A DNA stretch of 32,000 nt from an uncultured delta proteobacterium (GCA_963823335.1 CAWGLD010000001.1:556548-588547), one strand, 5' to 3'. Shown: positions 5,008 to 22,812, counted from the stretch's first letter. A program made the numbers and translations. Notes: a model not told the origin generated them from the sequence alone.

Positions 5008-5013
5008 TCTCTA

Positions 5014-5388
5014 TCAGAAGCCATCAACAACCATCTTCCTGAAAAAAGCTATTGTGTCTTTTGCTTCAGTAATTACTGAATAAATAAGAACGCAAAACTG
5101 AAGACCAAAAATAACGCTTTCTAAAATAAAGAACTGTCTTGGGCTTGCGGTAAAAACAAGAAAAGGAACCAGTATCGCCGATAGCCAGAGAAAAATATAA
5201 CGGAATATAATCTTTTTCTTCCGATTTTTTTCCCTTATCAGAGAAATAATTTTCAACATAACATAAACAATAATAATATCCGAGATGCTCCACAATATCC
5301 CTTGAACTTTTGTGGTCAACAGATAGGCTTCTGTTGAAAAGCTCTTACCTATTTCCCAAAAAAACATATCTGTTAATTCTGAGATCAT
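5014..5388 (-). CDS. Hypothetical small integral membrane protein (AT-rich islet)
   Basis: 124 aa, several hydrophobic helices. Start overlaps the upstream gene stop (ATGA at 5385-5388). Helix ILWSISDIIIVYVMLKIISLIR resembles helices of the 198-aa neighbour. Confidence 0.55.
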   Translation of the reverse strand: MISELTDMFFWEIGKSFSTEAYLLTTKVQGILWSISDIIIVYVMLKIISLIREKNRKKKIIFRYIFLWLSAILVPFLVFTASPRQFFILESVIFGLQFCVLIYSVITEAKDTIAFFRKMVVDGF

Positions 5389-5981
5389 GCTAGCTTCTTT
5401 TTTAATAGGAAGAATATTTTAAGCCCAATCAGACCAACAATCCATTCTATGATAATCCAGAACATCCCGCATATTTTGATGTAAAAAGTAAAAGAATTTT
5501 GTATGTTCCTATGGGTATACCCGTCCATATCGACCAATGAGCCAAGATATGAATGGTAGGCAGCATAAAATGAAAAAAGACCTAGGAAGAATATACCCGG
5601 CCCAAATAAAAGAATCCTATTAAGTATTGGTTTTTTTCTCTCGATAACAATTCTTAACAGATTATAGATTTTGAAAACATAAATAACGATAGCCGCCTCG
5701 ATTGCTACCCAGAGGGTGCAAAAGAAATTCCACAAATAGCTGTAATAGAAATATCCTAATGGTTTGTATTTATTGCTTAAATACTTGTCGATATGTATCT
5801 CCTGGCCGAAGTTCAAACAGACAAGAAGAACAAAAACAGTGATACAAAAATAGATAAATGCTATTTGCCGGGCGTCACCATTTTTAAGAAAAATAAACCC
5901 TTTTCTGATATAAATCATAACCAATCCTTCGGCGAACAGCCAAAAGATTCCCATGATCTTTATAAAGAATGATAAACTCAT
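5385..5981 (-). CDS. Hypothetical integral membrane protein with an internally repeated W-x3-E helix motif (AT-rich islet)
   Basis: 198 aa. Three similar helices: IMGIFWLFAEGLVMIYIRKGFIFLK, CTLWVAIEAAIVIYVFKIYNLLR and ICGMFWIIIEWIVGLIGLKIFFLLK. Confidence 0.55.
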   Translation of the reverse strand: MSLSFFIKIMGIFWLFAEGLVMIYIRKGFIFLKNGDARQIAFIYFCITVFVLLVCLNFGQEIHIDKYLSNKYKPLGYFYYSYLWNFFCTLWVAIEAAIVIYVFKIYNLLRIVIERKKPILNRILLFGPGIFFLGLFSFYAAYHSYLGSLVDMDGYTHRNIQNSFTFYIKICGMFWIIIEWIVGLIGLKIFFLLKKKLA

Positions 5982-6014
5982 GTCTCTTAACCTGGATGAC
6001 GCCTACAACATTTT

Positions 6015-6695
6015 CTAAACGAGCATATCCGTCAAATCCGCGATGCTGTCAATGACGGCATCCGGGTTTTCCCGGCTCAACGCTTTATGGTCGTCAAACC
6101 CGGTGAGCACGCCAACCGTCTTCATCCCGGCTGCCTTACCCGCCTGAATATCTATACGCGCATCCCCCACATACATGCAGTCCCGGGGCAGGACGCCAAG
6201 ACTTTTACAGCCCTTTATCAATGGATCCGGCGCCGGCTTTTTACGGGGTGCATCCTCTGCATGGATGATGAACTCCAGCAGCTTGTCAATGCCTGAGTCC
6301 ACCAGTGTCGGCAGTTTGACCGCCATGCTTTGCCGGGGCGTGGATGTAACAATGCCCATCCTGATCCCTTTTTGCACCATGGCCTGCAGGGCTTTTTTTG
6401 CATCAGGGATCAGTTTTACCTGGTTTCTGAAAAGATTTGGATATATTTCGGCAATGATCTCACGGGTTTTCTTTATCAGGTGGTCTTTTTCTTGGGGTGT
6501 TTTTTTCGGGAACACACTGCCCCATTCAAAATCACCATTTTTTGCTGCCTCCCGAAGTCTGTCCCTGGAAGGCATCGGAAAATCGAGTCGATTGAATACT
6601 ATTTCAATAATCTGGTAGTATATGTGAATGGAGTCCAGAATCGTTCCATCGAGGTCAAACAAAACAGCAGTCACATTAATTTTCTTATTGTTCAC
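6015..6695 (-). CDS. HAD-superfamily hydrolase (subfamily IA, phosphoglycolate phosphatase/PpaX-like)
   Basis: 226 aa. Motif I VLFDLDGTILDS, motif II IVTST, and C-terminal YVGDARIDIQAGKAAGM. Confidence 0.8.
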   Translation of the reverse strand: MNNKKINVTAVLFDLDGTILDSIHIYYQIIEIVFNRLDFPMPSRDRLREAAKNGDFEWGSVFPKKTPQEKDHLIKKTREIIAEIYPNLFRNQVKLIPDAKKALQAMVQKGIRMGIVTSTPRQSMAVKLPTLVDSGIDKLLEFIIHAEDAPRKKPAPDPLIKGCKSLGVLPRDCMYVGDARIDIQAGKAAGMKTVGVLTGFDDHKALSRENPDAVIDSIADLTDMLV

Positions 6696-7277
6696 CTAAT
6701 TATCCTGCGCTTTCTTCTTGTGCATCCAAAAATAGTAAAAGGCCAACAAGGTCATGCCATTGTCGATGCGATTGTCATGAATCTCGGAAGAAACATGGGC
6801 CAGGGGAAGCTTGATGACATCCAGGTCTTCCCCTTCATCCAAGGCGGGTGCCTGCTGAAATTCAGCATCCATGGCCAGGCATACAACACATTTGTTGCTC
6901 AATATGGCCGGCTGGGGAAAACATTCACCAATCACACGAAAATCCCTGGATCCATAGCCGGTCTCCTCCAAAAGCTCTCTCCGGGCGGCTGCAATGGGAG
7001 AAGGATCATCCGGGTCCACCAGCCCGCCAGGCAGCTCCAGGTGTACCTTCTCGGTGCCATGGCGGTACTGGTTGACCATCACGACTTCCTGTTCCGCGGT
7101 AAGCGCCAGCACCACAACCCAGGTGGGGAAGTGAATGGCCATCACATTCATGGTCTTCCCGGTTCTGGGCGAGCGTGCCTCTTTTGATTCTATCTGCATG
7201 AGTTTGAAATCATGCAGGATTTTTCGATTCAATATTTTCCACGGTCGGATCATTCTGACAACTCCTTGATTACGCAA
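6696..7277 (-). CDS. Nudix hydrolase (ADP-ribose pyrophosphatase/NudF-like)
   Basis: 193 aa. QYRHG block and Nudix box GGLVDPDDPSPIAAARRELLEETGY. The stop abuts the HAD start codon. The true start may be the internal Met at 7250. Confidence 0.8.
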   Translation of the reverse strand: MRNQGVVRMIRPWKILNRKILHDFKLMQIESKEARSPRTGKTMNVMAIHFPTWVVVLALTAEQEVVMVNQYRHGTEKVHLELPGGLVDPDDPSPIAAARRELLEETGYGSRDFRVIGECFPQPAILSNKCVVCLAMDAEFQQAPALDEGEDLDVIKLPLAHVSSEIHDNRIDNGMTLLAFYYFWMHKKKAQDN

Positions 7278-7279
7278 TG

Positions 7280-7400
7280 TTTTAGGTGTTAGGTATTAAG
7301 TTTTAGGTTCAGCCACAAGACAGGTGCCCCTTTGCTGTCCGCTAATGGCCGTCACCCTTATACCACCCTCCGACCCTCCAACCCCCTCATCACCCTCACC
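7280..7400 (-). repeat. Composite intergenic repeat, copy E (reverse orientation, diverged core)
   Basis: The reverse complement reads GGTGAGGGTGATGAGGGGGTTGGAGGGTCGGAGGGTGG...GACGGCCATTAGCGGACAGCAAAGGGGCACCT...CCTAAAACTTAATACCTAACACCTAAAAC. Its G-rich arm overlaps the LysR stop codon. Confidence 0.7.
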
Positions 7401-8343
7401 TCTGCTGGGCCAGTATCTTCAACATCAAGGCCCCGATATCCTGTGGTCGCATATCTTCGGAGCGTAATTTTTTCAAGACTTTTTCAAAAGCCCTGGCAGG
7501 CATGGACAAGGGTTGCTTTTTCAGGTAGGCAAAACTGACGTCAAGATAAATCTGTTGTCCTTTGAGGGGAATCGTGGCCAATTTTCCTTCTTCGATTTCC
7601 GCAGCCACACAGGCCTTCACAAGAATGGAAACCCCCTCCCCTTTCTGAACCAGCTGTTTGATAAATTCGTTGTTACTGGTTTCCATGAGAACATTGGGTG
7701 TACAATCATGCTGTTTAAAAAGCATGTTCACGCGCTTTCGGGTTCCTGAACCTGTTTCCTTCATGATCAGCGGCTCTTTAGCCAGGTCCTGGGGGGAGAT
7801 GTCTCCTTCGGCTGTCAGCGGGTGATTTACCGGAACAACAAGAATCAGCTCTTCCTGACTGAAAGGAACAAATGTAACCGCTGGATTCTCTGATGCCTTT
7901 GCAATGACAGCCACTTCATTCTTGAATTCCAGGAGGGTGTTGGTCATGTCCAGTGAGCTGCCCTCATCCAGATGAATTTTGATGCCGGGGTAGTCTTTAT
8001 GAAAGCTGGAGAGCAGCGACGGCATAAAATAGCGCGCATAGGTCTTGGTGGTTCCCAGCCTCAGAACACCCCGTTTCAGCTCCTTCATGTCATCGATGAC
8101 GTTCTCGATTTCTTTTTCATATTGAAAGATTTTCTGGGTGTATTCATACAGTGTCTTGCCTTCTTCCGTCAGATGTATCTGGCGTCCCTTTTTCTTGAAC
8201 AGCTTCAGGTTGCATCCTTCTTCCAGTGCCTTGACCTGGGCCGTTACAGCCGGTTGTGTTACGAAGAGCATGCCTGCCGCAACCGTAAAACTGGCATGCT
8301 TCGCTGCATAATGAAAGGTCCTGAGCTGGTTGAAGTTCAACAT
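7396..8343 (-). CDS. LysR-family transcriptional regulator
   Basis: N-terminal HTH MLNFNQLRTFHYAAKHASFTVAAGMLFVTQPAVTAQVKALEE. Start moved from 8409 to the ATG at 8343, which has an AAGGAAG RBS and gives the canonical LysR N-terminus. Confidence 0.9.
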   Translation of the reverse strand: MLNFNQLRTFHYAAKHASFTVAAGMLFVTQPAVTAQVKALEEGCNLKLFKKKGRQIHLTEEGKTLYEYTQKIFQYEKEIENVIDDMKELKRGVLRLGTTKTYARYFMPSLLSSFHKDYPGIKIHLDEGSSLDMTNTLLEFKNEVAVIAKASENPAVTFVPFSQEELILVVPVNHPLTAEGDISPQDLAKEPLIMKETGSGTRKRVNMLFKQHDCTPNVLMETSNNEFIKQLVQKGEGVSILVKACVAAEIEEGKLATIPLKGQQIYLDVSFAYLKKQPLSMPARAFEKVLKKLRSEDMRPQDIGALMLKILAQQR

Positions 8344-8414
8344 GAACGTCTTCCTTTTTGAAGTATCTCCCAACAAGTCACGGGGCAAGCGCGCGCTGTC
8401 GTGTTTCAAAACTT

Positions 8415-8431
8415 TTATTTATGGAAAATAA
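8415..8431. promoter_or_regulatory. Candidate LysR-type operator (inverted repeat TTATTT-N5-AAATAA)
   Basis: Perfect 6-bp arms containing a T-N11-A, about 72 bp upstream of the LysR start, in the AT-rich divergent region. A second 12-bp palindrome ATAAATATTTAT lies at 8498-8509. Confidence 0.35.
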
Positions 8432-8660
8432 ATCACATAAGAAAATGTTATAATCAACATAAATTTAATTGAATTGACAGAATATTTTAGTTACTCCATA
8501 AATATTTATATTATATCTCCTTCTGCTGCTGAATGTTTTTGCTGATACTTCTTACTGAGACTGGTTTCAGAGCCTCCATTATTCATCGTCCAAGCTTACC
8601 CTGCGGACCTTCAGGGTTCGGCAAAATTCCTATTAACCCCACACAAAAAGGAGGATAAAA

Positions 8661-10517
8661 ATGCCGGACGAAAAAGGAAGATTTCCAGATCCCCACGAGA
8701 TTCAGGTTCCCCCGGAACTTGAGGGATGGGAGGAGATGTATCCATCACATCACCTCTTTTCCAAGGACAGAGCAGACTGGGAAAAAGCGCAATTCTGGTA
8801 TCAGGACAAGATCCATGCACCCGAGCCGGTGCCACCCCTGGATCTCATTTTTCAGGAGGCGTGGCAGATCTCCCTTTCCCAGTACACTACCCGGGTATTT
8901 TGTATTCCACCTGCCCAGGGAATCGCCCAGAGAATGGTGGGCTGTTACCTGTACATCTGTGCCATTGCGCCCCCACCCGACGAAATTATCGGCCAGAAAG
9001 CAGCCCTGTTCGAAAAACGCGTTTTCTATGTATTTGAGCACTATGATGAACTGTGGGAAAAATGGCTCACAAAGTTCAAGGCGCTGGGCCAGGAAATGGA
9101 GGACGTGAAGGTCCCGGCGGAGTTGCCGAAATTTGTTCCGGATGATGAAGTGCTGCCCGCGCCTAAGGGCTACTACGATTCATACACACTCCTCGAATCT
9201 TTCGACAAACTTGTCAACCAGATGTTCAAGGGCTGGCAATATCATTTTGAAATGCTCAATCTGACCTATCTGGCCTACCTCATGTTTGCCGATGTAGCCA
9301 GAAAACTTTTCCCGGGAATCAGTGAAAGCGCCATCGGCAAGATGGTGGCCGGCGCATATGTTTCCATGTTCAAACCGGAGGAGGAATTGTGCCGACTCGC
9401 CAGACTGGCACATTCGACCCAGGCCGTGGCGGATATTTTAAGGAGCGACAACACGGCGGCGGAAAAAATCGCCACGCTTGAAAAAATATCTGAAGGTAAA
9501 AACTGGCTGGCGGAATATGAAAAATCCAAAGACCCCTGGTTCTCTGTGTCCTGCGGCAGCGGCTGGTTTCATCATGAAGGCAGCTGGACAACCAACCTCG
9601 ATATTCCTTTCAGCTATCTCAAGAGTTATGTGGACCGTTTAGCCAATGGAGAAACCATCGAACGTGCCCTGGAGGAGATCGGTAAAGAACGGGACAAAAT
9701 CGTCGAAGAATACAAAAATCTCATCCAGACCGACGAAGACAGACAATCCTTCGACGGTGCCTACAACACCATCCGAACCATCTATCGATATGCCGAGGAT
9801 CATCTCTTCTGGGTGGAACATTGGTTCCATACCATTTGGTACAGAAAAATCCGGAAGATCGGGAAACTGCTTGTCGACAACGGGATGATCGATCAAGTGG
9901 ATGACATTTTCATGTTCAACCGTTACGAAATTCCGCAACTTCTGACCGAAGTTTCAACGGCCTGGGCCCTGGGCGTAGACATACCCATGAGAAGTTCCCA
10001 CTACAAGGCCAAGGTTGTCAAGCGTCGAAGCATTCTGGAGGCCGCCGGAAAATGGAATCCGACACCGGCACTGGGTGTTCCGCCTGCAGAAGTGGCCGAG
10101 CCGTTTACGATCATGCTGTGGGGCATCACCACGGACAGGGTGCAGGAATGGCTCAAGGGCGTCGATGCGGCCCAGGAAGGCGATGTTTCCGAAATCAAAG
10201 GCTTTGCTTCTTCCGCCGGTGTAGCTCAAGGACCCGCAAGGGTACTGAAGTTACTCAAGGACATCCTGGATCTGCAGCCCGGAGAAGTACTGGTTTGTCC
10301 CTCAACCAACCCGTCCTGGGCACCTGTTTTTACCAACATCAAAGCAGCCGTTACCGACATTGGCGGTCTCACAAGTCATGCGGCCATCGTCTGCAGAGAA
10401 TACGGTATTCCGTCCGTCACGGGGACGGGTGTGGCTACGTCTGTTATCAAGACCGGCGATATCGTCAAGGTAGACGGCGATACGGGTTTGGTAGAGGTAA
10501 TCGAACGGGCAGGGTAA
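8661..10517 (+). CDS. Phenylphosphate-synthase alpha-like subunit (PEP-utilising enzyme mobile phospho-His domain, no ATP-grasp domain)
   Basis: 618 aa with strong RBS AAAGGAGGA. C-terminal swivel domain [23 protein letters not shown] holds the phospho-His. N-terminus [16 protein letters not shown] resembles PpsA-type proteins. Confidence 0.8.
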
Positions 10518-10555
10518 TCCGACACCTACGTTGCCCGAACAACCATTTAAGCATG

Positions 10556-10586
10556 TTTGGAGCGGTGTAACCAACGCCGCTCCAAA
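10556..10586 (+). other. Intercistronic stem-loop (10-bp perfect stem, 11-nt loop, no U-tract)
   Basis: TTTGGAGCGG-tgtaaccaacg-CCGCTCCAAA lies between the two synthase subunit genes. Confidence 0.6.
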
Positions 10587-10615
10587 CTTCCTAAAACCCG
10601 TAAACGGGGGTGGAA

Positions 10616-11686
10616 ATGGAGTATGTTCTTACTTTCCTGGAGGTAGACAAAAATTCACTGTCGCTGGTTGGCGGCAAAAACGCCAGTCTGGGAGAATTGA
10701 TAAAGGCGGACATTCGCGTGCCTCCCGGTTTTGCCGTAACCACGGAGAGTTATCATAAATTTATCACCGAAACCGGGATCAGGGACAAGATTTTCCAAAT
10801 ACTATCGGACATGAAGCCGGGAGACATTGCCGCCCTGAATGCCGCCAGCGAAAGTATCCAGACGCTGATACAGGGTTCAGCCCTGTCGGAAGACATCCGA
10901 TCGGCCATCGAAAAAGCATATGCGGAGCTCTGCGCCGACTGCCGGGTAATCGACATGCCGGTGGCGGTTCGTTCAAGCGCTACGGCCGAAGACCTGCCCA
11001 CGGCCAGCTTCGCCGGTCAACAGGACACCTATCTCTGGATTCAGGGTCACAAAGATGTCGCGGAAAAGGTTCAGCGCTGCTGGGCCAGCCTGTTTACACC
11101 CCGGGCCATCGATTATCGTGTAAAAAATAAGTTTGCACATGAGAAAGTTCTGATCAGCGTAGGGGTTCAGAAAATGGTGAACTCCAGAGCTGCCGGGGTT
11201 ATGTTTACATTGAACCCGACCGACGGCGACCTGTCCAAGGTCGTTATCGAAGGCAGCTGGGGGCTGGGGGAGACTGTCGTTTCCGGCTCCGTCAATCCGG
11301 ACAAGTTCGTGGTAGACAAGGTGGTCATGGAAACTTCAGACAAGACCATTTCCACCAAACACATCGCCTGCGTATACGACCCGCAGGCAGGTAAGGTCGT
11401 GGATGCGGATGTGGATGAAGACATGCAGTGCAAATGCTGTCTGGAGGATATGGAAGTCAAGGCCCTGGTGAGCATGGGCAAGTTGATCGAACGGCACTAC
11501 AAGCGCCCCATGGACATCGAATGGGCCATCGATAAAGACCTCGATTTCCCCGAGAATATCTTTATCGTGCAGGCGCGGCCGGAGACCGTCTGGAGCCAGC
11601 GTAAGACACGCTCGCTAATCGGCGCTAAAAGCGGCTATCAACTTTTGATGGAACAGGCCATGAAACGGATCAAGATACCCAGTTAA
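10616..11686 (+). CDS. Phenylphosphate-synthase beta-like subunit (PEP/pyruvate-binding ATP-grasp domain of PEP synthase)
   Basis: The ORF track starts at GTG 10610. The ATG at 10616 has ACGGGGG 5 nt upstream. LVGGKNASLGEL, VAVRSSATAEDLPTASFAGQQDTYL and DIEWAID are PPDK_N/PpsA N-domain hallmarks. Confidence 0.85.
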   Translation: MEYVLTFLEVDKNSLSLVGGKNASLGELIKADIRVPPGFAVTTESYHKFITETGIRDKIFQILSDMKPGDIAALNAASESIQTLIQGSALSEDIRSAIEKAYAELCADCRVIDMPVAVRSSATAEDLPTASFAGQQDTYLWIQGHKDVAEKVQRCWASLFTPRAIDYRVKNKFAHEKVLISVGVQKMVNSRAAGVMFTLNPTDGDLSKVVIEGSWGLGETVVSGSVNPDKFVVDKVVMETSDKTISTKHIACVYDPQAGKVVDADVDEDMQCKCCLEDMEVKALVSMGKLIERHYKRPMDIEWAIDKDLDFPENIFIVQARPETVWSQRKTRSLIGAKSGYQLLMEQAMKRIKIPS

Positions 11687-11691
11687 AAAAT

Positions 11692-11835
11692 AGGGTTCGA
11701 GGGTCCGAGGGTCCGAGTGGCGAAGGGTGGCTGACGGCAGTGAGCGAAAGGCACCTGCAGCCTATCGTCTAAACGCCTAAAAGAAGTGCTTGGTTCTCAG
11801 CTGAAATTAACACTAAAACCTAAAACCTAAAACGA
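11692..11835 (+). repeat. Composite intergenic repeat, copy C (G-rich arm, core 11729-11756, CAGCTG plus CTAAAAC x3 tail)
   Basis: Starts 6 nt after the PpsB-like stop. Core GGCTGACGGCAGTGAGCGAAAGGCACCT is identical to copy D. Confidence 0.85.
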
Positions 11836-11944
11836 AAATACTGCACTAACGTCTATACCGCAAAAAAAATCGTTTGGTAAAAATCATATGGGTTTTGTTT
11901 GCATGTTTGTTCAATTCTAACCAATAAAGGAGGACTGTTGCTCT

Positions 11945-13351
11945 ATGAAGAACATGAGAGATTTTATCACAGAAGGTGAGAAAAAGGGCCTGTGTAAACG
12001 AATTTCAGCTGAAGTCGATTGGAATCTGGAGTTGTCGCATATCGCCAAACTCAATGAAGAGCAAAAGGGTCCGGCGCTGCTGTTTGAAAATGTGAAGGAC
12101 TATGACACACCGGTGATTACCAGTGTCTGTACCACCCCTGAAAGACTGGCATTTATCCTTGGTCAACCATTGGATTCCACGCTTGTAGATCTCTACGCGC
12201 ACTGGGCCAAGCTGGGGGACAACCTGTTGGAGCCCAAGTATGTGGAAAAAGCGGATGCGCCATGCAAAGAGAATATCATCACCGGGGACGACATTGACCT
12301 TTTCAAATTCCCCGTGCCGCAGTGGTATCCTCTGGACGGGGGCCGTTATATCGGGACCGCTCATTTCTTCATCAGCAAGGATCCCGAAACCGGCTGGGTA
12401 AACCTGGGAACCTACAGGGCTCAGCTATTGGGAAAAGACAAGATTGGCACCCAGTTTATCAAGGGCAAACATGCCGACATCATGCTGAAGAAATATCAAG
12501 CCATGGGGAAACCCATGCCGGTGGCTTCAGTAATCGGGTGTGATCCTCTGCTTTTTATCCTCGGTGCAGCACGCGTTTCAGCTTTTACTTCAGAATACGA
12601 TGTGGCAGGCGCCCTGCGCGGTGAGCCTGTAGAAGTCGTTAAAGGAGAAATCGTCGATCTGCCCATTCCGGCACATGCCGAGATCGTGCTCGAAGGAGAA
12701 GTGGATGCCGACAAATTTATGGAAGAAGGACCGTTCGGTGAATATACCGGGTATTATTCCGGCGTTGGTACGGATCCACGCAATTTCATGGATGTCCAAT
12801 GTGTCACCCATCGTAACAATCCGATTCTCTGGGGAACCACCGTCGGCCGGGCCGTTACAGACACGCACATGACCATGGCACTGTCATATGGGGCCACCCT
12901 TTGGCAACAATTGTTGGCCATGAAGATTCCAGGCTTGAAAGCGGTTTACTGCCCGCCGGAAGGCTCCGGACGGTTTTTGGCCATCATCTCCATGAAGCAG
13001 ATGTATCCCGGGCATGCAGACCAGGTGCTCACGGCTGCCATTTCAACGGAAATGGGTGCCTATGGTCTGAAAACCGTCATCGTCGTGGATGAGGATATCG
13101 ACCCCTGGGATATTCCCCGGGTCCTGTATGCCTTGAGTTTCAGATTCCAGCCCAACCGCAGTCAGGTCATCAAGAGAGGGCGGTCCACACCACTGGATCC
13201 GTCTCTGCCCATCAATGCGCGGGAAATTACCGGTAGACTTTTGTTGGATGCCACCATACCCTATGACTGGAAACACAAACCGATTCCCATTGAACTGGAC
13301 GCGGAAATGGTGAAAAGAGTCAAGTCGCGATGGTCTGAGTTGGGGTTATAA
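11945..13351 (+). CDS. UbiD-family (de)carboxylase, phenylphosphate-carboxylase alpha/beta-like
   Basis: 468 aa. VDWNLELSHIAKLNEEQKGPALLFE, EGPFGEYTGYY and KRGRSTPLDP blocks are typical of UbiD/Ppc-type carboxylases. AGGAGG lies 11 nt upstream. Confidence 0.85.
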   Translation: MKNMRDFITEGEKKGLCKRISAEVDWNLELSHIAKLNEEQKGPALLFENVKDYDTPVITSVCTTPERLAFILGQPLDSTLVDLYAHWAKLGDNLLEPKYVEKADAPCKENIITGDDIDLFKFPVPQWYPLDGGRYIGTAHFFISKDPETGWVNLGTYRAQLLGKDKIGTQFIKGKHADIMLKKYQAMGKPMPVASVIGCDPLLFILGAARVSAFTSEYDVAGALRGEPVEVVKGEIVDLPIPAHAEIVLEGEVDADKFMEEGPFGEYTGYYSGVGTDPRNFMDVQCVTHRNNPILWGTTVGRAVTDTHMTMALSYGATLWQQLLAMKIPGLKAVYCPPEGSGRFLAIISMKQMYPGHADQVLTAAISTEMGAYGLKTVIVVDEDIDPWDIPRVLYALSFRFQPNRSQVIKRGRSTPLDPSLPINAREITGRLLLDATIPYDWKHKPIPIELDAEMVKRVKSRWSELGL

Positions 13352-13385
13352 AAATAAAAACGCTCAATTTAGGAGGAGTTAGGTA

Positions 13386-13901
13386 ATGTCCGATACCGAC
13401 ATGATAGAAGACAAAAAGGTTCTGGTGGTTGATGATGAACAGGACATTCTGGAGGTTTTGGAAGAACTGCTGGATATGTGCCATGTGACAACAGCGTCGA
13501 CCTTTGATCAGGCTAAAACCCTGTTGGAAACCCAGGCCTTTGACATCGCGATTCTCGATATCATGGGGGTTGACGGATATCGCCTGTTGGAAATTGCCAA
13601 CAAGAAAAAGATACCCGCAATTATGCTTACAGCGCATGCATTCTCTGCCGGCAACCTGGTAAAGACCATCAAAGAGGGTGCCTATGCCTATGTTCCCAAA
13701 GAAGAAATCGGCCGGATCGCCGAGTTTCTTTCAGATGCCTTGAACGCCAAAAAACAAGGCAAAAATCCCTGGCGCGTCTGGGAGGAAAGACTGCCGTCAT
13801 CCTATTTTGAAAAAAGATGGGGGGCGGCCTGGAAGAATTCGGACCGGGACTTCTGGAACAAATTCAGGGAAAGCATCAAAACGCGGGATGGGAAAAAATA
13901 A
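13386..13901 (+). CDS. Stand-alone response-regulator receiver domain protein with a Trp-rich C-terminal extension
   Basis: 171 aa with AGGAGG RBS. VLVVDDE, phospho-acceptor AILDIMG, MLTAH and YVPKEE give the full receiver residue set. No DNA-binding domain. Confidence 0.8.
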   Translation: MSDTDMIEDKKVLVVDDEQDILEVLEELLDMCHVTTASTFDQAKTLLETQAFDIAILDIMGVDGYRLLEIANKKKIPAIMLTAHAFSAGNLVKTIKEGAYAYVPKEEIGRIAEFLSDALNAKKQGKNPWRVWEERLPSSYFEKRWGAAWKNSDRDFWNKFRESIKTRDGKK

Positions 13902-13912
13902 CGCAGTTATCC

Positions 13913-13934
13913 CCAACCAGGATAAACCGGTTGG
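13913..13934 (+). other. Stem-loop after the receiver gene (CCAACCAGG-ATAAA-CCGGTTGG, one bulge, no U-tract)
   Basis: Read directly from the sequence, 12 nt after the stop codon. Confidence 0.3.
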
Positions 13935-13980
13935 AGTGAAGCGAAAACCCTGGCTTGCCGGGGAAAAGATAAGACCTTTT

Positions 13981-14060
13981 ATCACGAAAGCACGAAAGTA
14001 CGAAAACACGAAAATTTTCATGGTCTTTTTCGTGTTTTTCAGATTTCGTGTTTTCGTGAT
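13981..14060. repeat. CACGAAA short-unit palindromic repeat (about 35-nt imperfect arms)
   Basis: ATCACGAAAGCACGAAAGTACGAAAACACGAAAA-ttttcatgg-...TTTTCGTGTTTTTCAGATTTCGTGTTTTCGTGAT. The left arm holds four CACGAAA-like units and the right arm their complements. Confidence 0.85.
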
Positions 14061-14158
14061 TGCTTATATTTTTTTGCCACATAATTTACAAATTTTACAG
14101 TGCTCTGTGTCATTTGGACTTTATAGATAAGCATGAAAAAGAAAGAAGGAGGTTTGAA

Positions 14159-15814
14159 TTGAAACCGATTCGTTACCAGAAAGATATGATCGATGAATTT
14201 GTGACCGATGGTTACTGGACCGAAGAGCTTTTCTATGACTTCTGGGATAGAAATGCCCGGGAAATCGGTAACCGGGAAGCGCTGGTAGACTCGAAATATC
14301 GCCTGACATGGTCTGAAGCCAAAAAACTGGTGGACGCCATGGCCATTTCCTGGGTGGAAATGGGAATTCCCAAACATTCCCGGGTCATCATTCAATCGCC
14401 CAACAGTGTCTACGGGTTTCTCGCCCGAATCGCCTGTGAGAGGGCCGGACTCATTTCTCTTACGGTCTATCCATACCTTCGTCAGAGGGAATTGGAGTAC
14501 ATGCTGGAGAAAACAGAGGCCAAGGCAGTCGTTATTCTGAACATCTACAACAAATTCAATTATCTAAAAATGTACACGGAGCTCCAGAAACAGTTTCCCC
14601 ATCTAAAATATTTTTTTCTTTTCGACGATGACGTTCCGGACGATGCGCCTGCGGGTACCTATTCGCTGCCCCGGATGACCCAGCTCCGGGCAGAAAAACC
14701 AGTGGACGCATCCGTGCTGGCAGAACGCAGGTTGGACCCGTTCTGGAACATCTCCCTGCTCACGACCACATCCGGCACCACCGGTATCCCCAAGCTGGTG
14801 GAGTGGCCCACCGCGCCCCGCGTCTGCACATCCAAAGGCAGATGCGCCATCTGGAACCTCAACCGTGACGACACCACCATGGCCATCGCCCCTCATGCCG
14901 GCGGAGCGGCTGGAACACTGACGTATTTCGCCGCCCCCATTGCCGGTGCCAAAACCGTGATGTTGGAGGAGTTTTCCGGCGAAGGCGCGCTGGCGCTCAT
15001 CGAAAAAGAGAAAGCTACGGCCATCGGTGTGGTTCCCACCCACCTTATACGGATGCTGGAGGCCGACGTCTCCAAATACGATCTGAGTTCTCTGCGGTTT
15101 ATCCGCTCGGCCGGCGGGTATTTATCACCCCAGGTGGCCGAAGAAGCTGAAAACGCATTTAAGGCAAGCATTACCAGCGACCTTGGGACCCAGGACAAGG
15201 GATCGGTGTCCGGGTGCAGCGTAGAGGATTCAAAGGATCTTCGCCGCAGAACCGTCGGCCGCATGCTTCCGGGCAACAAGGTGAGATTGCTGGACAAGGA
15301 CACCGGCAAAGAAGTGCCCGAGGGCGAACCCGGAGTTCTCTGGCTCAGGGGCCCCCACGCCCCGGCAGGATACTTCCGGGACGAGGAATTGACCGCCACG
15401 GTGTTCGACAAGGACGGATGGACCACCACGGAGGATATCGTCAAATTCGATCAGGGCTGTCTGTGGATTCTGGGCCGGGCCAAGGACATGATCATCCGGG
15501 GAGGACAGAACATCTATCCTGCAGAGATCGAGGGCCTGCTCAATGATCATCCCGGGGTATCGTCTGTAGCGGTTGTGGGGTATCCGGACCGGGAGATGGG
15601 TGAACGGTGCTGTGCCTACGTCATCCCCAAGCCTGGTGTGGATTTTTCCTTTGACGAAATGGTTTCTTTTCTCAAGGGGAAAAATATTGCCATGTTCAAA
15701 CTTCCGGAACGGCTCGAAATTGTGTCTGAGTTTCCCCTGGTGGGAGATTCGGGCAAGGTCAACAAGGAAACCTTGAAGGAACAGATCAAGGCATTGGTTG
15801 AGAAGGGGAGCTAA
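14159..15814 (+). CDS. AMP-forming aryl-carboxylate-CoA ligase (ANL superfamily, EntE/4-hydroxybenzoate-CoA ligase-like)
   Basis: TTG start at 14159 with AGGAGG 6 nt upstream; the ORF-track start at 14060 lies inside the palindromic repeat. Motifs TTTSGTTGIPKLVE, GRAKDMIIRGGQNIYPAEIE and C-terminal SGKVNK. Confidence 0.85.
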   Translation: MKPIRYQKDMIDEFVTDGYWTEELFYDFWDRNAREIGNREALVDSKYRLTWSEAKKLVDAMAISWVEMGIPKHSRVIIQSPNSVYGFLARIACERAGLISLTVYPYLRQRELEYMLEKTEAKAVVILNIYNKFNYLKMYTELQKQFPHLKYFFLFDDDVPDDAPAGTYSLPRMTQLRAEKPVDASVLAERRLDPFWNISLLTTTSGTTGIPKLVEWPTAPRVCTSKGRCAIWNLNRDDTTMAIAPHAGGAAGTLTYFAAPIAGAKTVMLEEFSGEGALALIEKEKATAIGVVPTHLIRMLEADVSKYDLSSLRFIRSAGGYLSPQVAEEAENAFKASITSDLGTQDKGSVSGCSVEDSKDLRRRTVGRMLPGNKVRLLDKDTGKEVPEGEPGVLWLRGPHAPAGYFRDEELTATVFDKDGWTTTEDIVKFDQGCLWILGRAKDMIIRGGQNIYPAEIEGLLNDHPGVSSVAVVGYPDREMGERCCAYVIPKPGVDFSFDEMVSFLKGKNIAMFKLPERLEIVSEFPLVGDSGKVNKETLKEQIKALVEKGS

Positions 15815-15817
15815 AAC

Positions 15818-15913
15818 AGGGTCCAGGGGTGATACAAGGGTGGTAAGAGGGTTCGAGGGTGGCTGACGGCAGTGAGCGAAAGGCACCTAAAAGCCTACAG
15901 TCTAAAGCCCTAA
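15818..15913 (+). repeat. Composite intergenic repeat, copy D (G-rich arm, core 15861-15888, CTAAA tail)
   Basis: Starts 4 nt after the CoA-ligase stop. The core is identical to copy C. Confidence 0.85.
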
Positions 15914-15976
15914 TTTTCTGAACTAGGTTCATCGGCTTTTCGCTAGTGTCCGTCCAAAAATAGAGATTTTCGCGTT

Positions 15977-17188
15977 ATGCCAAAGCAGATCCTGATCATA
16001 TCCACCCTGGACACCAAAGGGGTGGAAACACGTTACTTGAAGCAGAAAATCGAGGCGCTGGGTCTTTCCGCCATCCTCATGGATCTGTCCATGCGCGCTG
16101 ACGTTAAACTGCCGGCTGAAATAACCAATGCCCAGGTGGCTGAAGCAGGCGGCAGCAGCATCGAAGAAATCGGGCAATCCCGTGAACGAAGCAAGATCAC
16201 GAAAATCATGACGTCCGGGGCTTCCAAGCTGGCAAGGCAGTATTATGGCGAGGGCAGAATCGACGGTGTAATTGCAATGGGCGGATCCACCGGCACCCTG
16301 ATGGCATCCGATGTGATGCGGTCCCTCCCTTTTGGTGTTCCCAAGACAGTTATATCTTCTACGGCAGCACTTCCCGGTCTTTCCACCAGGTATATCGGAA
16401 CAGGGGATATTACGCTGTTTCATTCGGTAATCGAAATTTCCGGTCTTTCCAATTTGTTAAAAAACGTGATGGACAGGGCAGCACACGCCATCACCGCCAT
16501 GGTTCATGAGACAGTCACACCCCTGGTTACGGGCGAGGGAAAAGCCATCGCCCTGACCATGCTGGGTCCCTGTGAAAAATGTGCCAGCTTTGTCCGTATT
16601 GCCCTTGAAAAAGAAGGCTATCAGGTCATCGGCTTCTCCGCAGCCGGTGTGGGTGATCGGGCCATGGAACAGATGATCGCCGAAGGGTTTTTTCAGGGTG
16701 TCATCGACCTGGCGCCGGGTGGGGTCGGGGAGCATCTTTTCGGTTTTATGAGAGATGCAGGCCCGAATCGACTGGAAAATGCAGGCAGGATGGGAATTCC
16801 AATGATTGTTTCCACCTGCAGCGTCAATCACATGACACCCTCAAAGTCCAGATACCAAGCCGAATACCACCAGCGCCGCAAATATGACCTGGATAAATTT
16901 CGCACCTGGATACGATTGTCGCCGGAAGAGCTGCAGAGCGTTGCGCAAGCCTTTGCCGCGAAATTGAACAAAGCCGGCGGCCCGGTAAAATTCCTGATAC
17001 CGCAGAATGGTTGGTCTTCGGTGGACCAGCCCGGCAATCCGACCCACGATCCACAGGAGGACCGCATCTTCGTTGAGGTGCTGCAACAAAACCTGCGCCC
17101 GGACATCGACATCCTGGAAATACAGGCCAATATGGAAGACCCGGTCTTTGCCCAGGCTGTTGTTGAAACGGCATTGCATCTATTTTAA
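15977..17188 (+). CDS. UPF0261 / Tm-1-like ATP-binding domain protein, paralog 3
   Basis: 403 aa. Carries GGSTGT, PFGVPKTVISSTAA and GTGDITLFHSVIEISGLSN, with blocks collinear with paralogs 1 and 2. Confidence 0.8.
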   Translation: MPKQILIISTLDTKGVETRYLKQKIEALGLSAILMDLSMRADVKLPAEITNAQVAEAGGSSIEEIGQSRERSKITKIMTSGASKLARQYYGEGRIDGVIAMGGSTGTLMASDVMRSLPFGVPKTVISSTAALPGLSTRYIGTGDITLFHSVIEISGLSNLLKNVMDRAAHAITAMVHETVTPLVTGEGKAIALTMLGPCEKCASFVRIALEKEGYQVIGFSAAGVGDRAMEQMIAEGFFQGVIDLAPGGVGEHLFGFMRDAGPNRLENAGRMGIPMIVSTCSVNHMTPSKSRYQAEYHQRRKYDLDKFRTWIRLSPEELQSVAQAFAAKLNKAGGPVKFLIPQNGWSSVDQPGNPTHDPQEDRIFVEVLQQNLRPDIDILEIQANMEDPVFAQAVVETALHLF

Positions 17189-17225
17189 TTGACCATATGC
17201 CTCTTGAAAAAGTAGCTCCTCTGGG

Positions 17226-17245
17226 ATAAAGAATCGATTCTTTAT
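17226..17245. promoter_or_regulatory. Perfect 20-bp palindrome ATAAAGAATCGATTCTTTAT (candidate operator)
   Basis: Exact dyad read from the sequence, 117 bp upstream of the ubiX start in a 173-bp gap. Confidence 0.4.
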
Positions 17246-17361
17246 TCTGCTGGGAAGCGAGGATGCTTGGAGACTGGGATGCTGCTGTCCGTTTTTATCT
17301 CTCAGCCACCCTCGAATCCTTGGCCTCTGGAACCCTTTTTCCTAAAAAAAGCGAGGTACCC

Positions 17362-17967
17362 ATGTCCAAACGAATTGTCATAGGAATATCCGGTGCAAGC
17401 GGTGTGACGTACGGTGTGCGCCTGCTCAGCCTGCTGAAAGACAGTGATTATGAAACGCACCTGATCTTGTCCGAATCCGGCAAACTCAATATCAAGATCG
17501 AGACAGCCTACACACCCGAGGAAGTCCAGGCCATGGCCAGTCATGTGTATGACCACAAAGACATGGCCGCCGCTCTGTCATCCGGTTCTTTCCTGACCCA
17601 GGGCATGGTGGTGGTCCCGTGTACCATAAAGACCTTGTCCGGGATTGCCAACTCATATAACGAGAACCTTCTTGTGCGGGCCGCCGATGTCACATTAAAG
17701 GAAAAACGCAAACTGGTTCTGGTGGTGAGAGAAACGCCCCTGCACCTCGGTCACCTGCGCCTCATGACACTGGCGGCGGAAATGGGAGCCCTTATTGTAC
17801 CGCCGGTGCCCTCCTTTTATCATCAACCCGAAACCCTCCAGGACATCATCGATCAAACCATCGGCAAGGTATTCGATTACCTCGGTATCGAACACGCGCT
17901 TTTTAATCGCTGGGGTGAGAACAAAAGAATGCCCAGGACACCCGATGCCTCATTAAAAGCACTTTAA
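17362..17967 (+). CDS. ubiX: Flavin prenyltransferase UbiX (prFMN synthase)
   Basis: Start set at ATG 17362 (GCGAGG RBS), giving MSKRIVIGISGASGVTYGVRLL, the canonical UbiX N-terminus. Also VVVPCTIKTLSGIA and LVVRETPL. Confidence 0.9.
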   Translation: MSKRIVIGISGASGVTYGVRLLSLLKDSDYETHLILSESGKLNIKIETAYTPEEVQAMASHVYDHKDMAAALSSGSFLTQGMVVVPCTIKTLSGIANSYNENLLVRAADVTLKEKRKLVLVVRETPLHLGHLRLMTLAAEMGALIVPPVPSFYHQPETLQDIIDQTIGKVFDYLGIEHALFNRWGENKRMPRTPDASLKAL

Positions 17968-17971
17968 AGGT

Positions 17972-18006
17972 GAGAATCTCTTTCCTCGGGGTGAGCTTTG
18001 ATTCTC
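17972..18006. terminator. Weak candidate bidirectional terminator between convergent ubiX and the MTHFR_C-like gene
   Basis: GAGAATC...GATTCTC 7-bp stem with a 21-nt loop, followed by TGTTTT. The loop is long for an intrinsic terminator. Confidence 0.25.
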
Positions 18007-18010
18007 TGTT

Positions 18011-18712
18011 TTAGGCGCCCTCATCTCCCCCGGGAAACCCGGGGCTTCCGGCAATACCTGTTCGTTTGCGGGAGCGCGGGCCCGCGGCGCCTTCAGATCG
18101 CCAGTCCTGTGGTTTCCGCACCTCATGGATCAAGTGAAGTTTATTCTGTCGCTGAAGCCTTTCATAGATCTGCCCCCATGCACAGGGAACCTCCGGGTTG
18201 ATTTCACAGCTGACGCCGTTGCTTCCCCCGCAAGGGCCGTTCAACAGGCTCTTTGCACATCGGGCGATCGGACAAATACCGCCGGTATAGGTCAGCAGGC
18301 AGTCGCCACATCCCCGGCACATTTCCTGCCATAGGCCCGGTTCAAAAGAGGCACCAAGAAAGGTTGTGTTCAATGCCGGAATCACAGGCAGGGGATCAAA
18401 AGCATCGGCCAGGGTCTGTACACCGGCCCCGCAGGCCAGAGAGATAACGGCATCGGTCCCTTGGGGAAGCTCGTGATAGGATTGGACGAGATCCAGCTCG
18501 CATTGCCTTAATATAACATCGACGGTTATGGGTGACGGCTCGGCCCCGTGGTACACTTTGCGGTTGAGCTCTTGGGCGAGCATCTGCACCTCGCGGTCTC
18601 CGCCGGAAAGACACACGGAAACACAGCTTCCACAACCGACGATGGAAATTTTTTCATAACCGGAAATAGATCGAATGATCTCCTCGATGGGTTTGATATC
18701 ACCGACAATCAT
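18011..18712 (-). CDS. Methylene-tetrahydrofolate reductase C-terminal-domain-like Cys-rich protein
   Basis: 233 aa. CRGCGDCLLTYTGGICPIARCAKSLLNGPCGGS is the NGPCGG-type motif of the MTHFR_C family. An additional CGSCVSVC lies at the N-terminus. Confidence 0.65.
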   Translation of the reverse strand: MIVGDIKPIEEIIRSISGYEKISIVGCGSCVSVCLSGGDREVQMLAQELNRKVYHGAEPSPITVDVILRQCELDLVQSYHELPQGTDAVISLACGAGVQTLADAFDPLPVIPALNTTFLGASFEPGLWQEMCRGCGDCLLTYTGGICPIARCAKSLLNGPCGGSNGVSCEINPEVPCAWGQIYERLQRQNKLHLIHEVRKPQDWRSEGAAGPRSRKRTGIAGSPGFPGGDEGA

Positions 18713-18721
18713 GACATAGCC

Positions 18722-19102
18722 TCATTTTTTTTCCATAAAGTGGGCCTTGACTTTGAGCGTCAGGGCCGGCTTGTGGCGTTCGCAAACAGGCGCTTCAAGT
18801 TTGCCCAGCTTTTCAGCAAGTGTTTCTCCAAAAGCGGCGGTATAAATCGGCTCGCCACACACACGGCAGTGCTCCAGATCGAGGGAGATGACCTCATCCC
18901 AGCGGTTTTGGAGCATATATTGAAATTCGACGGCATCCTGAGGGCACACACGCCAGCAATTCCCGCAGCGGGCGCATTTTGCCATATTGTGGCGAAGTTT
19001 TCTCTTTTTAGCATCATCCTGAACATCGATGGCATTGGCAGGACAATTCTGTAAACAGGCCAGACACCCGTTACATTTGCTGTTGACCTGGAAAAAGTTC
19101 AT
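18722..19102 (-). CDS. 2x[4Fe-4S] ferredoxin-domain protein with a Cys-containing C-terminal extension
   Basis: 126 aa. CNGCLACLQNCP and CARCGNCWRVCP motifs. Confidence 0.75.
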   Translation of the reverse strand: MNFFQVNSKCNGCLACLQNCPANAIDVQDDAKKRKLRHNMAKCARCGNCWRVCPQDAVEFQYMLQNRWDEVISLDLEHCRVCGEPIYTAAFGETLAEKLGKLEAPVCERHKPALTLKVKAHFMEKK

Positions 19103-19103
19103 C

Positions 19104-19694
19104 TCAGTACTTCCTCCTTAAACAGGCGGATTTGCGGATATTGGCCGTTTGAAGCATGTCGGCATCGTCCCATCGCAATGCACCGGGTTCGCAAAAATGA
19201 ACACACTGCGGGTTTCCATTACACACATCGCACTTGAAAATCACCTGTCGGATTTCGTCGAAACCGATGGCCGCATAGGGACAGGCAGCCATACACGCTC
19301 GACAGGATACACATCGGTCATAATCCACCATGACCCTTCCCCAATCGTCATTCCAGACCATGGCCTCTTTGGGGCAGACAGCCATGCAAGGCGCATCCGC
19401 ACACTGCTGACAACAATTCGGTAAAAAGACATCACCCGTGTGCCATGCAATTACACGAATTCGAGATCGGGAAGTATCGATGTCGCCCAGATGGAAAAGA
19501 GAACAGGCAATTTCGCAGAGCCTGCACCCATTGCACTTTTGTGGATGAATTGTAATGACTTTCTGTGAGACGTGCGCTTCTTCCGGCCGTGGGGCCAGCA
19601 CGTTAAAGTCACCGTTTTTCAGTCGCTCCACGATATCTTCCGGGAGGCTGCTTTTTGTCTCCTGGCCAGCTTTGCAGAAACGCGTGTCGATCAT
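19104..19694 (-). CDS. Polyferredoxin with four [4Fe-4S] motifs (AorA/DmsB-like electron-transfer subunit), paralog of 22300-22797
   Basis: 196 aa. CNGCRLCEIAC, CCQQCADAPCMAVCP, CVSCRACMAACP and CDVCNGNPQCVHFC. AGGTGA RBS. Confidence 0.8.
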   Translation of the reverse strand: MIDTRFCKAGQETKSSLPEDIVERLKNGDFNVLAPRPEEAHVSQKVITIHPQKCNGCRLCEIACSLFHLGDIDTSRSRIRVIAWHTGDVFLPNCCQQCADAPCMAVCPKEAMVWNDDWGRVMVDYDRCVSCRACMAACPYAAIGFDEIRQVIFKCDVCNGNPQCVHFCEPGALRWDDADMLQTANIRKSACLRRKY

Positions 19695-19728
19695 GTTGGA
19701 TCACCTATTTCGTCACAACTTATTGTTC

Positions 19729-19734
19729 ATTATA
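19729..19734 (-). promoter_or_regulatory. Candidate -10 box (TATAAT on the minus strand) for the polyferredoxin operon
   Basis: Perfect TATAAT hexamer 35 nt upstream of the ATG at 19694, with no convincing -35. An alternative TTGACA(19783-19778)-18-TAAAGT also exists. Confidence 0.3.
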
Positions 19735-19930
19735 TTGAACGCAATATGACAGTACTTTATCGACTAAAATGAATCCTTGTCAACTATAAAATGATAGATT
19801 ACAGCTCTTGTCATACGTATGTTCCGTTTGGCCTATTTGCAAAACAAGCGTTTGTTTGAAGTTGTTTGCCGAAGCAGCTTCGGAACGTTGTTCTGACAAA
19901 CTGTCTACAGGGATTATGTGTATTTTGCCC

Positions 19931-19960
19931 TTGACACCGGGGCCTGTTTTCAACTATAAC
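19931..19960 (+). promoter_or_regulatory. Candidate sigma-70 promoter for the Zn-ribbon/AOR operon
   Basis: TTGACA (19931-19936), an 18-nt spacer, then TATAAC (19955-19960), about 65 nt upstream of the ATG at 20027. Confidence 0.4.
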
Positions 19961-20026
19961 CACACCATAATAATTCATCCTAATGAACAAACCCTTTTTG
20001 TGAAACAAACAGATGAGGAGCATGCC

Positions 20027-20332
20027 ATGGCCATCGACTCAAAAAATCTATCATCAGCCGAATCGTTACAGAAAGCCCGCACCTTCGGCAAAATCAGATG
20101 CCACAACCCCAGCTGCATGGAAAGGATGGAGCCGTCTCCCGGCGACGATCACGTCAAATGCGCAACCTGTGGCATGGAGTTTCGGCTCTTCTGGGTGCGC
20201 CCGGACCTGCCGCGAATCCGCGGACCGGTCTGGGATGTCAATCGTAAAATTGCGGAGCAGAAGTTGGCCGAGAAATTAAAAAAAGCCAGCCCGGTCTCAA
20301 AGAAAAAAATCAAAAAAGAGGGGGTATCCTAA
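20027..20332 (+). CDS. Small zinc-ribbon protein with a Lys-rich tail, translationally coupled to AOR
   Basis: Start set at ATG 20027 (GAGGAG 6 nt upstream). 101 aa. CHNPSC...CATCG forms two CxxC-type pairs. The stop lies 1 nt before the AOR ATG. Confidence 0.6.
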   Translation: MAIDSKNLSSAESLQKARTFGKIRCHNPSCMERMEPSPGDDHVKCATCGMEFRLFWVRPDLPRIRGPVWDVNRKIAEQKLAEKLKKASPVSKKKIKKEGVS

Positions 20333-20333
20333 G

Positions 20334-22274: not shown

Positions 22275-22299
22275 ATTATGGAATGGAGAGGAAAAGACA

Positions 22300-22797: not shown

Positions 22798-22812
22798 CAC
22801 GGCAAATAAAAA

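Follow-up and report, generated by a model that had tools for sequence, protein, structure and literature searches.

A probable phe-type phenol-activation operon in an uncultured delta proteobacterium and its conserved UPF0261 component

Organisation of the gene cluster

We analysed a stretch of 32,000 nucleotides, here called the window, from the genome of an uncultured delta proteobacterium (GCA_963823335.1 CAWGLD010000001.1:556548-588547). Between positions 8661 and 17967 the window carries seven co-oriented genes on the plus strand, preceded by a divergent LysR gene. Judged by orthology and gene order, these genes very probably constitute an anaerobic phenol-activation operon of the Desulfobacterota type, that is, of the type of the phe cluster of Desulfatiglans anilini, under the control of the divergent LysR protein. 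An earlier reading made from the DNA alone (the sequence-only reading) had described the seven genes and their domains; its coordinates and all of its domain calls were confirmed with Pfam and NCBIfam, the scores of curated models being judged against the model cutoffs, and two translation starts, those of the ligase and of UbiX, were corrected. The regulator and the seven genes are as follows.

7396-8409, minus strand: divergent LysR-type regulator (HTH_1 and LysR_substrate domains), drawn from a TTG
8661-10517, plus strand: PpsA-like dikinase subunit, 618 aa, with the substrate-binding part and a C-terminal phospho-histidine swivel (PF00391, PEP-utilizers, E 3e-25)
10610-11686, plus strand: PpsB-like ATP-grasp dikinase subunit, 358 aa from a GTG or 356 aa from the ATG at 10616 (PPDK_N, E 2.8e-120)
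11945-13351, plus strand: PpcB-type UbiD (de)carboxylase, 468 aa (UbiD_N, UbiD and UbiD_C), the only UbiD in the window
13386-13901, plus strand: stand-alone receiver protein, 171 aa, a Response_reg domain without an output domain
14159-15814, plus strand: ANL-family aryl acid-CoA ligase, 551 aa (AMP-binding and AMP-binding_C), a predicted 4-hydroxybenzoate-CoA ligase
15977-17188, plus strand: in-cluster UPF0261 protein (MarK/Tm-1 family), 403 aa, with N- and C-terminal domains PF06792 and PF23189
17362-17967, plus strand: UbiX flavin prenyltransferase, 201 aa, which makes the prenylated flavin mononucleotide (prFMN) for UbiD

The ligase most likely starts at the TTG at 14159, since this codon stands behind a GAAGGAGG ribosome-binding site and the conservation among orthologs begins there. 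For UbiX the most likely start is the ATG at 17362, and the true start of LysR is probably near 8343, at MLNFNQLRTF. A promoter and terminator scan of 8300-18300 gave counts no higher than expected from shuffling and is uninformative on operon structure.

The first two genes have the features of a two-component dikinase. The PpsA-like protein scores 847 bits with NF006153 (cutoff 578) and carries its catalytic histidine in a motif of the T/SxxGGxxxH type (GGLTSH) that is a feature of two-component phenolic dikinases; a serine precedes this histidine, as reported for PpsA and CreH. A search of the PDB with the same protein returned no HpeH-like structure among the matches. The PpsB-like gene follows 92 bp downstream and encodes a separate, adjacent ATP-grasp subunit, as in PpsAB, CreHI and HpeHI. 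The UbiD protein passes the model for the phenylphosphate carboxylase beta subunit (TIGR02724, 507.7 bits; cutoff 468.95) and fails that for the alpha subunit (TIGR02723, 227 bits; cutoff 564.6). UbiX lies above the cutoffs of both NF004685 (262.3 against 188) and TIGR00421 (240.2 against 108.9).

Thauera aromatica has the phenylphosphate synthase PpsABC and the phenylphosphate carboxylase PpcABCD. Common to Thauera and the window are a two-component dikinase with a phospho-histidine swivel, a beta subunit of the UbiD family, a UbiX-like gene inside the cluster and, as predicted, the same overall chemistry. The window differs in having one UbiD instead of two: the beta subunit is present, whereas the alpha subunit (PpcA), the small gamma subunit and the HAD-type delta phosphatase are absent from the cluster, as is the CBS-type PpsC. 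Instead of these, the window cluster encodes a UPF0261 protein, an ANL ligase and a receiver protein. PpcB of T. aromatica and the D. anilini ortholog of the window UbiD have an identity of only 49% (PMC6114531). The sequence-only reading had likewise reported a single UbiD and no PpcC-, PpcD- or PpsC-like gene, and this holds. The intergenic gaps of the cluster contain no unassigned plus-strand open reading frame (ORF) of 30 aa or more, so they offer no candidate for a small subunit; no CBS (PpsC-like) protein was found among the Pfam-scanned ORFs of the window or by tblastn of the whole window with a CBS probe, and tblastn over the whole window found no LpdD-like small protein. A second UbiD was likewise not found in the 32 kb.

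Relationship to the phe cluster of Desulfatiglans anilini

The phe cluster of D. anilini DSM 4660 (H567DRAFT_02049-02059) has the order divergent LysR, PpcB2 (02059), ANL (02058), UPF0261 (02057), UbiX (02056), HcrBCA, PpsA (02052) and PpsB (02051), with a further UPF0261 gene (02061) adjoining LysR. The window contains the orthologous LysR, divergent as in D. anilini, a single PpcB-type UbiD followed by ANL, UPF0261 and UbiX, PpsA and PpsB in the same locus, and additional UPF0261 genes near LysR, and both clusters are without ppcC, ppcD and ppsC. The window UbiD is 83% identical to PpcB2, which is annotated as phenylphosphate carboxylase beta. Identities are 77% for the ANL ligase, 75% for UbiX, 67% for the in-cluster UPF0261 protein, 62% for PpsA, 59% for LysR, which occupies the same position beside PpcB2, and 56% for an upstream UPF0261 protein (the ortholog of 02061). 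The two loci differ in that PpsAB immediately precede UbiD in the window and lie downstream of HcrBCA in D. anilini, and in that the window has a receiver gene between UbiD and the ligase, lacks the Hcr genes and the PaaK-type ligase (02049), and upstream carries a third paralog of UPF0261 together with an ARMT1-like phosphatase.

In D. anilini the abundance of proteins 02049-02059 is higher with phenol than with benzoate, and crude extracts of phenol-grown cells form phenylphosphate from phenol and ATP (PMC6114531). The D. anilini genome has no ppcC, and its best candidates for ppsC, ppcA and ppcD are unlinked to the phe cluster (PMC6114531). In the proteome data of this organism (replicate 1, areas given here and below in the order 4-aminobenzoate, aniline, benzoate and phenol; PMC7500099 Table S1), PpcB2 reached 1.5e9, 8.8e8, 8.8e8 and 1.8e10, and the ANL protein 02058 reached 8.5e8, 8.0e8, 6.6e8 and 1.26e10. 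PpsB had an area of 4.0e9 on phenol, and UbiX 02056 was detected on phenol only (3.9e7). In vitro, PpcB2 together with a second UbiD, PpcB of the aniline cluster, carboxylates phenylphosphoamidate (PMC7500099).

This orthology makes the composition of the cluster one of a described and partly characterised type. The sequence-only reading had taken it to be uncharacterised. The same set of genes, including LysR, is the phenol-induced phe cluster (PMC6114531), and in that orthologous system the proteins fall in a phenol clade that has been characterised, and the subunits absent from the cluster are encoded at other places and co-induced, so that the claim to novelty fails. The order of events that had been read from the genes, phosphorylation, carboxylation by UbiD and thioesterification of a phenolic compound, is supported by the orthology to the experimentally studied phe cluster. 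The locus is an ordinary, well-conserved copy of a known phenol-activation operon that is common in uncultured Desulfobacterota.

Three other systems may be compared. In Geobacter metallireducens the operon Gmet_2100-2102 consists only of ppsA-ppsB-ppcB, likewise with a single PpcB-type gene and without ppcC (PMC1924859), and Xie and Muller themselves noted the parallel to D. anilini (PMC6114531). The ani cluster of D. anilini (PasB 03868, UPF0261 03869, acyl-CoA synthetase 03870, PasA 03871 and PpcB 03872) has in common a kinase pair, a UbiD, a CoA ligase and a UPF0261 protein of its own; its substrate, however, is aniline, and the phe and ani proteins are at most 36% identical, with 52% for the two UbiDs (PMC7500099). 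The putative benzene carboxylase cluster abcD-abcA-bzlA-ubiX shares a UbiD-family carboxylase, an aryl-CoA ligase and UbiX. Here the window differs by a UbiD that lies above the PpcB equivalog cutoff and by a phenol dikinase encoded alongside, and these two features argue against assigning the predicted carboxylase to AbcDA.

Conservation of the cluster

With each species represented by one genome, a scan for relatives of the window UbiD gave 259, and the best 80 of them were retained. All 80 loci come from bins of uncultured genomes; nearly all are labelled as deltaproteobacterial or Desulfobacterota (Desulfobacterales, Desulfomonilaceae, Syntrophales, Ca. Desulfacyla), and the labels of a few are wider (Pseudomonadota or Gammaproteobacteria, for example). 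In total 81 loci were compared, and the proteins of the window and of D. anilini were mapped onto them; the denominators given are the loci in which a feature could be assessed.

Exactly one UbiD is present in all 81 loci (within about 10 kb). UbiD is immediately preceded by PpsB in 71/72 loci, and PpsA is upstream in 57/58, while UPF0261 is found downstream in every one of the 51 loci. An ANL ligase was counted in 46/51, UbiX in 34 of the 37 fully visible loci, and the divergent LysR gene, likely the transcriptional regulator of the operon, in 35 of 37 such loci. The receiver protein occurs in 41/76. The invariant core thus comprises PpsA, PpsB, one UbiD and UPF0261, and does not include the gamma and delta subunits of the textbook system. 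The cluster of the window adds little by itself, and it is this comparative result that matters.

These counts bear on the proposal that the locus encodes a new ATP-dependent aromatic carboxylation system, with novel subunits and with the receiver and UPF0261 genes as two foreign inserts. The absence of PpcA, PpcC, PpcD and PpsC from the window, set against Thauera aromatica, speaks for such a system. However, the same composition has been published and partly characterised in D. anilini, so that the proposal is refuted by orthology and synteny, and this composition occurs in dozens of species-level genomes; moreover, with UPF0261 in 51/51 and the receiver in 41/76 loci, neither gene is an insert, as the sequence-only reading had supposed. 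We give this proposal practically no weight.

The linkage of the genes also bears on the possibility that UbiD and UbiX act as a decarboxylase, turning 4-hydroxybenzoate into phenol, with the kinase genes as unrelated neighbours. UbiD enzymes are reversible, and models of hydroxyarylic acid decarboxylases of the VdcC type match the UbiD protein at 317 bits, a score below their cutoff of 650. The PpcB equivalog, on the other hand, is above its cutoff; PpsA and PpsB are linked to UbiD in 57/58 and 71/72 loci, a CoA ligase is encoded with them, and the D. anilini orthologs are induced by phenol. A decarboxylase is therefore very unlikely.

In the receiver protein the phospho-acceptor set is intact (D16/D17, D58, T82 and K104). 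Its C-terminal tail, residues 126-160, is rich in tryptophan (W..W...LP.SYFE.RWGAAW...D..FW..F) and has no Pfam match; the part W..W...LP.SYFE.RWGAAW is at least 90% conserved among 44 orthologs. The orthologs form a tight family of about 172 aa, and three further independent ones each follow UbiD immediately in a Pps-UbiD cluster. A search of the window's genes turned up no histidine kinase. The protein is an optional member of the operon and probably a modulator controlled by phosphorylation.

Of the five loci without ANL, two have a PaaK-type ligase after UbiX instead, as does L084. This finding speaks for a function of the ANL gene product as a CoA ligase. Hcr genes adjoin the cluster in some close relatives (L004-L006).

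Accessory families emerged when the other ORFs of the 81 loci were clustered. An LpdD-type chaperone of reduced prFMN (prFMNH2; PF21758) is encoded between UPF0261 and UbiX in 22 loci (e.g. L026 15213-15584 and L084 9039-9428), including the closest fully syntenic relative; the window has a gap of 173 bp here (17189-17361), without a tblastn trace of such a gene. A CBS-pair, PpsC-like protein follows UPF0261 in 17 loci of the Desulfomonilaceae type, a PNPOx-like protein is present in 15 loci and a flavin-reductase-like protein in eight, and the window is without all three. A family of HD-domain phosphohydrolases is represented in 21 loci including the window. The copy in the window, at 25452-26048 on the plus strand, lies outside the operon and is 33% identical to the family representative, whereas in the 20 other genomes the gene is inside the operon, either in the gap between UPF0261 and UbiX or beside LysR (e.g. 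L086 7199-7801 and L073 14907-15503). It is possible that the HD protein is the phosphatase counterpart of PpcD of Thauera.

The loci of the Desulfomonilaceae type (L010, L012, L014 and others) have a variant operon, in which a minus-strand LysR is followed by UbiX, the PNPOx-like gene, PpsA, PpsB, UbiD, ANL, UPF0261, the CBS (PpsC-like) gene and HD. Their proteins have diverged unevenly from those of the window: UbiD is 88-92% and ANL 80-85% identical, PpsA about 42%, PpsB about 50% and UPF0261 about 54%. UbiD and the ligase thus behave as an unusually conserved pair, and the contrast with PpsA suggests different histories for the kinase and the carboxylase/ligase modules.

Proposed pathway and the nature of the substrate

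In the pathway that we propose, PpsA and PpsB would act as a two-component dikinase in which PpsB presents ATP. The histidine of PpsA (GGLTSH) would be pyrophosphorylated and then monophosphorylated, and the phosphate would pass to phenol, so that the products would be phenylphosphate, AMP and phosphate. PpsAB and HpeHI are known to work in this way (PMC12167813), and for the window we infer it from motifs and orthology. The single PpcB-type UbiD, with prFMN supplied by UbiX, would next carboxylate phenylphosphate para to the oxygen to give 4-hydroxybenzoate. The ANL ligase would then convert 4-hydroxybenzoate to the CoA thioester and in this way pull the unfavourable carboxylation forward. 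The last step would be reductive dehydroxylation by Hcr, encoded outside the window. Orthology, gene order, motifs and conservation come from the present analysis, and phenol induction and ATP-dependent phosphorylation of phenol from the work of others on the D. anilini ortholog; on these we base the carboxylation step, the substrate of the ligase and the actual substrate in this organism, all of which are predictions.

Several observations weigh against assigning the locus to phenol activation by this route. Phenylphosphate carboxylase activity was undetectable in D. anilini extracts (PMC6114531), and the recombinant UbiDs PpcB and PpcB2, used together, convert phenylphosphoamidate and not phenylphosphate (PMC7500099), so that the carboxylation step of this type of operon is putative; it may need an unlinked second UbiD (03563 in D. 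anilini) or other factors. Furthermore, the authors of the D. anilini study assigned the 4-hydroxybenzoate-CoA ligase to 02049 and listed the ANL ortholog 02058 as of unknown function (PMC6114531). At about residues 373-380 the ligase ORF reads ITSDLGTQD, a variant at least 90% conserved in 47 orthologs. ANL enzymes usually carry a YGxTE core motif, and LGTQD stands in its place. Finally, no HcrABC genes were matched in the window, and the substrate is not readable from the sequence.

An alternative with the same chemistry would be activation of another substrate: aniline (via phenylphosphoamidate), a cresol or a dihydroxybenzene. PpcB2, the ortholog with 83% identity, also has a part in the carboxylation of aniline in D. 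anilini, and in vitro the aniline kinase PasAB acts on phenol as well as on aniline (PMC7500099). The window, moreover, has three UPF0261 paralogs, and kinases of the MarK family are promiscuous towards phenolics. Nevertheless, the whole block is syntenic with the phe and not with the ani cluster, and the window PpsA shares 62% identity with PpsA 02052, a phenol-induced protein. Since phe and ani proteins do not exceed 36%, the kinase of the window is of the phe type, and we regard a substrate other than phenol as unlikely.

The UPF0261 proteins

A catalytic function was first assigned to UPF0261 in 2025, with MarK (Saro_1862, PDB 9MPY) of Novosphingobium aromaticivorans, a kinase of phenolic ketones and aldehydes that converts ATP to ADP (PMC12624787). 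In its pathway MarK substitutes for the PpsAB-like dikinases AcvAB and HpeHI, and G195, H219 and H304, residues of its substrate site, are each more than 90% conserved in MarK homologs (PMC12624787). The in-cluster UPF0261 protein aligns over its full length with the structure 9MPY (E 3e-54), has the two-domain fold, and natively contains the lysine of the D-T-K motif at the ATP site (MarK K16, Tm-1 K20). Its identity to MarK is 30%; of the phenol-binding triad only G195 is kept, H219 being replaced by Ser and H304 by Leu. Among 53 in-cluster orthologs Ser is the commonest residue at position 219, and His was tallied in only four sequences. At about 50 positions the in-cluster clade has, with at least 90% conservation, a residue other than that shared by MarK and the two paralogs in the window (e.g. 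K142G, D282N and H384N). The replacement of H219 and H304 weakens the case for a plain phenol kinase of the MarK type. The two paralogs lie upstream of the cluster:

1239-2447, plus strand: second UPF0261 paralog (UPFa), 56% identical to D. anilini 02061; recurs near LysR in many loci
3796-5007, plus strand: third UPF0261 paralog (UPFb), with 42% identity the most MarK-like of the three

UPFb has the complete triad (G, H, H). The MarK pocket is conserved in it as G195, T196, H219, F283, I285 (as Val) and H304, and the ketone-binding H348 is replaced by Phe.

The D. anilini proteome tables contain a pattern for UPF0261 that their authors did not interpret (PMC7500099 Table S1). The ortholog of the in-cluster protein, 02057, has areas of 0, 5.0e7, 5.3e7 and 2.5e9. 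This amounts to an approximately 50-fold induction by phenol, with an abundance close to that of PpsB and far above that of UbiX. The UPF0261 protein of the aniline cluster, 03869, has areas of 5.4e9, 6.5e8, 0 and 0 and is thus specific to aniline and 4-aminobenzoate, and 02061, the ortholog of UPFa, is not induced by phenol (PMC7500099 Table S1). We regard the in-cluster UPF0261 protein as a core, stoichiometric and predicted ATP-binding component that represents a diverged MarK subfamily.

Most likely it is either an ATP-dependent partner in the carboxylation step or itself a phosphoryl-transfer enzyme, and not a strictly MarK-like phenol kinase. Among the candidate roles we rank a partner in carboxylation or phosphoryl transfer, replacing the gamma and delta subunits of Thauera, first, a second phenolic kinase next, and a factor in cofactor supply or maturation last. 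A low-level factor for prFMN maturation had been suggested by the HD, LpdD-like and UbiX neighbours in other genomes; it is less likely because 02057 is present at an enzyme-like abundance (2.5e9 as opposed to 3.9e7 for UbiX).

A more specific idea, which we put forward tentatively and consider doubtful, is that the in-cluster UPF0261 protein is the missing component of a single-UbiD phenylphosphate carboxylase of strict anaerobes. It would bind the aryl phosphate and carry out the phosphoryl transfer of the HAD-type delta subunit of Thauera, with ADP as a conceivable acceptor. If true, this would explain why no one has reconstituted the activity of phenylphosphate carboxylase from these organisms and how energy-limited sulfate reducers and syntrophs can afford to activate phenol. 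In a weaker version, one of the three UPF0261 paralogs may be an ATP-to-ADP phenol kinase, cheaper than the AMP-forming PpsAB, and UPFb would be the best candidate. The conservation of UPF0261, the finding that MarK is a kinase and the substrate-specific induction of the two D. anilini copies make two questions directly testable, namely how these anaerobes carboxylate and how they pay for phenol activation.

Neighbouring genes

Other genes upstream of the cluster are the following.

2488-3366: ARMT1/DUF89 'damage-control phosphatase', between the UPF0261 genes at 1239-2447 and 3796-5007
6015-6695, minus strand: HAD-IA phosphatase of the phosphoglycolate-phosphatase type, the only HAD protein noted
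6696-7277, minus strand: NUDIX hydrolase, close to the LysR gene and next to the HAD gene

Close relatives (L004, L026 and others) also have all or part of the trio of UPFa, ARMT1 and UPFb upstream of LysR. We rejected the HAD protein as the missing PpcD: it is an HAD-IA protein resembling phosphoglycolate phosphatases, and the model of the phenylphosphate carboxylase delta subunit is absent among the best 25 of its 41 NCBIfam matches. A NUDIX homolog is found beside LysR in at least 13 other loci. One might speculate that the NUDIX/HAD pair supplies dimethylallyl phosphate for UbiX.

A low-GC island at 5001-6000 (34%, compared with about 50% elsewhere) contains two minus-strand ORFs, one of them for a very hydrophobic membrane protein, and neither has a match in Pfam, NCBIfam or PADLOC. 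Applied to the unannotated ORFs of the window, PADLOC gave as its sole match a similarity to an HNH nuclease at 809-1186. Rfam and tRNA scans of the window gave no match.

Downstream of the cluster, at 18011-24255, lie redox genes: a tungsten-type aldehyde:ferredoxin oxidoreductase (AOR, 20334-22274), a 4Fe-4S subunit and a EutA-like protein (22813-24255), with two ferredoxin-like genes and a DUF5981 protein on the opposite strand. An AOR adjoins the cluster in at least eight loci, and in D. anilini the AOR 02046 is nearby. The AOR of the window was considered as a benzoyl-CoA reductase of the BamB type and rejected: its best structural relatives are classical AORs, and BamB matches only the N-terminal two thirds.

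A near-identical copy of the region 1876-23345 (98-99%) is present on an 828-kb metagenome contig in ENA (ERZ25039603 contig_3802, locus L001). That copy has 76 gap positions, and frameshifts fragment its PpsA, PpsB, HAD, ligase and UPF0261 genes, whereas the genes are intact in the window; the indels look like long-read error rather than biology.

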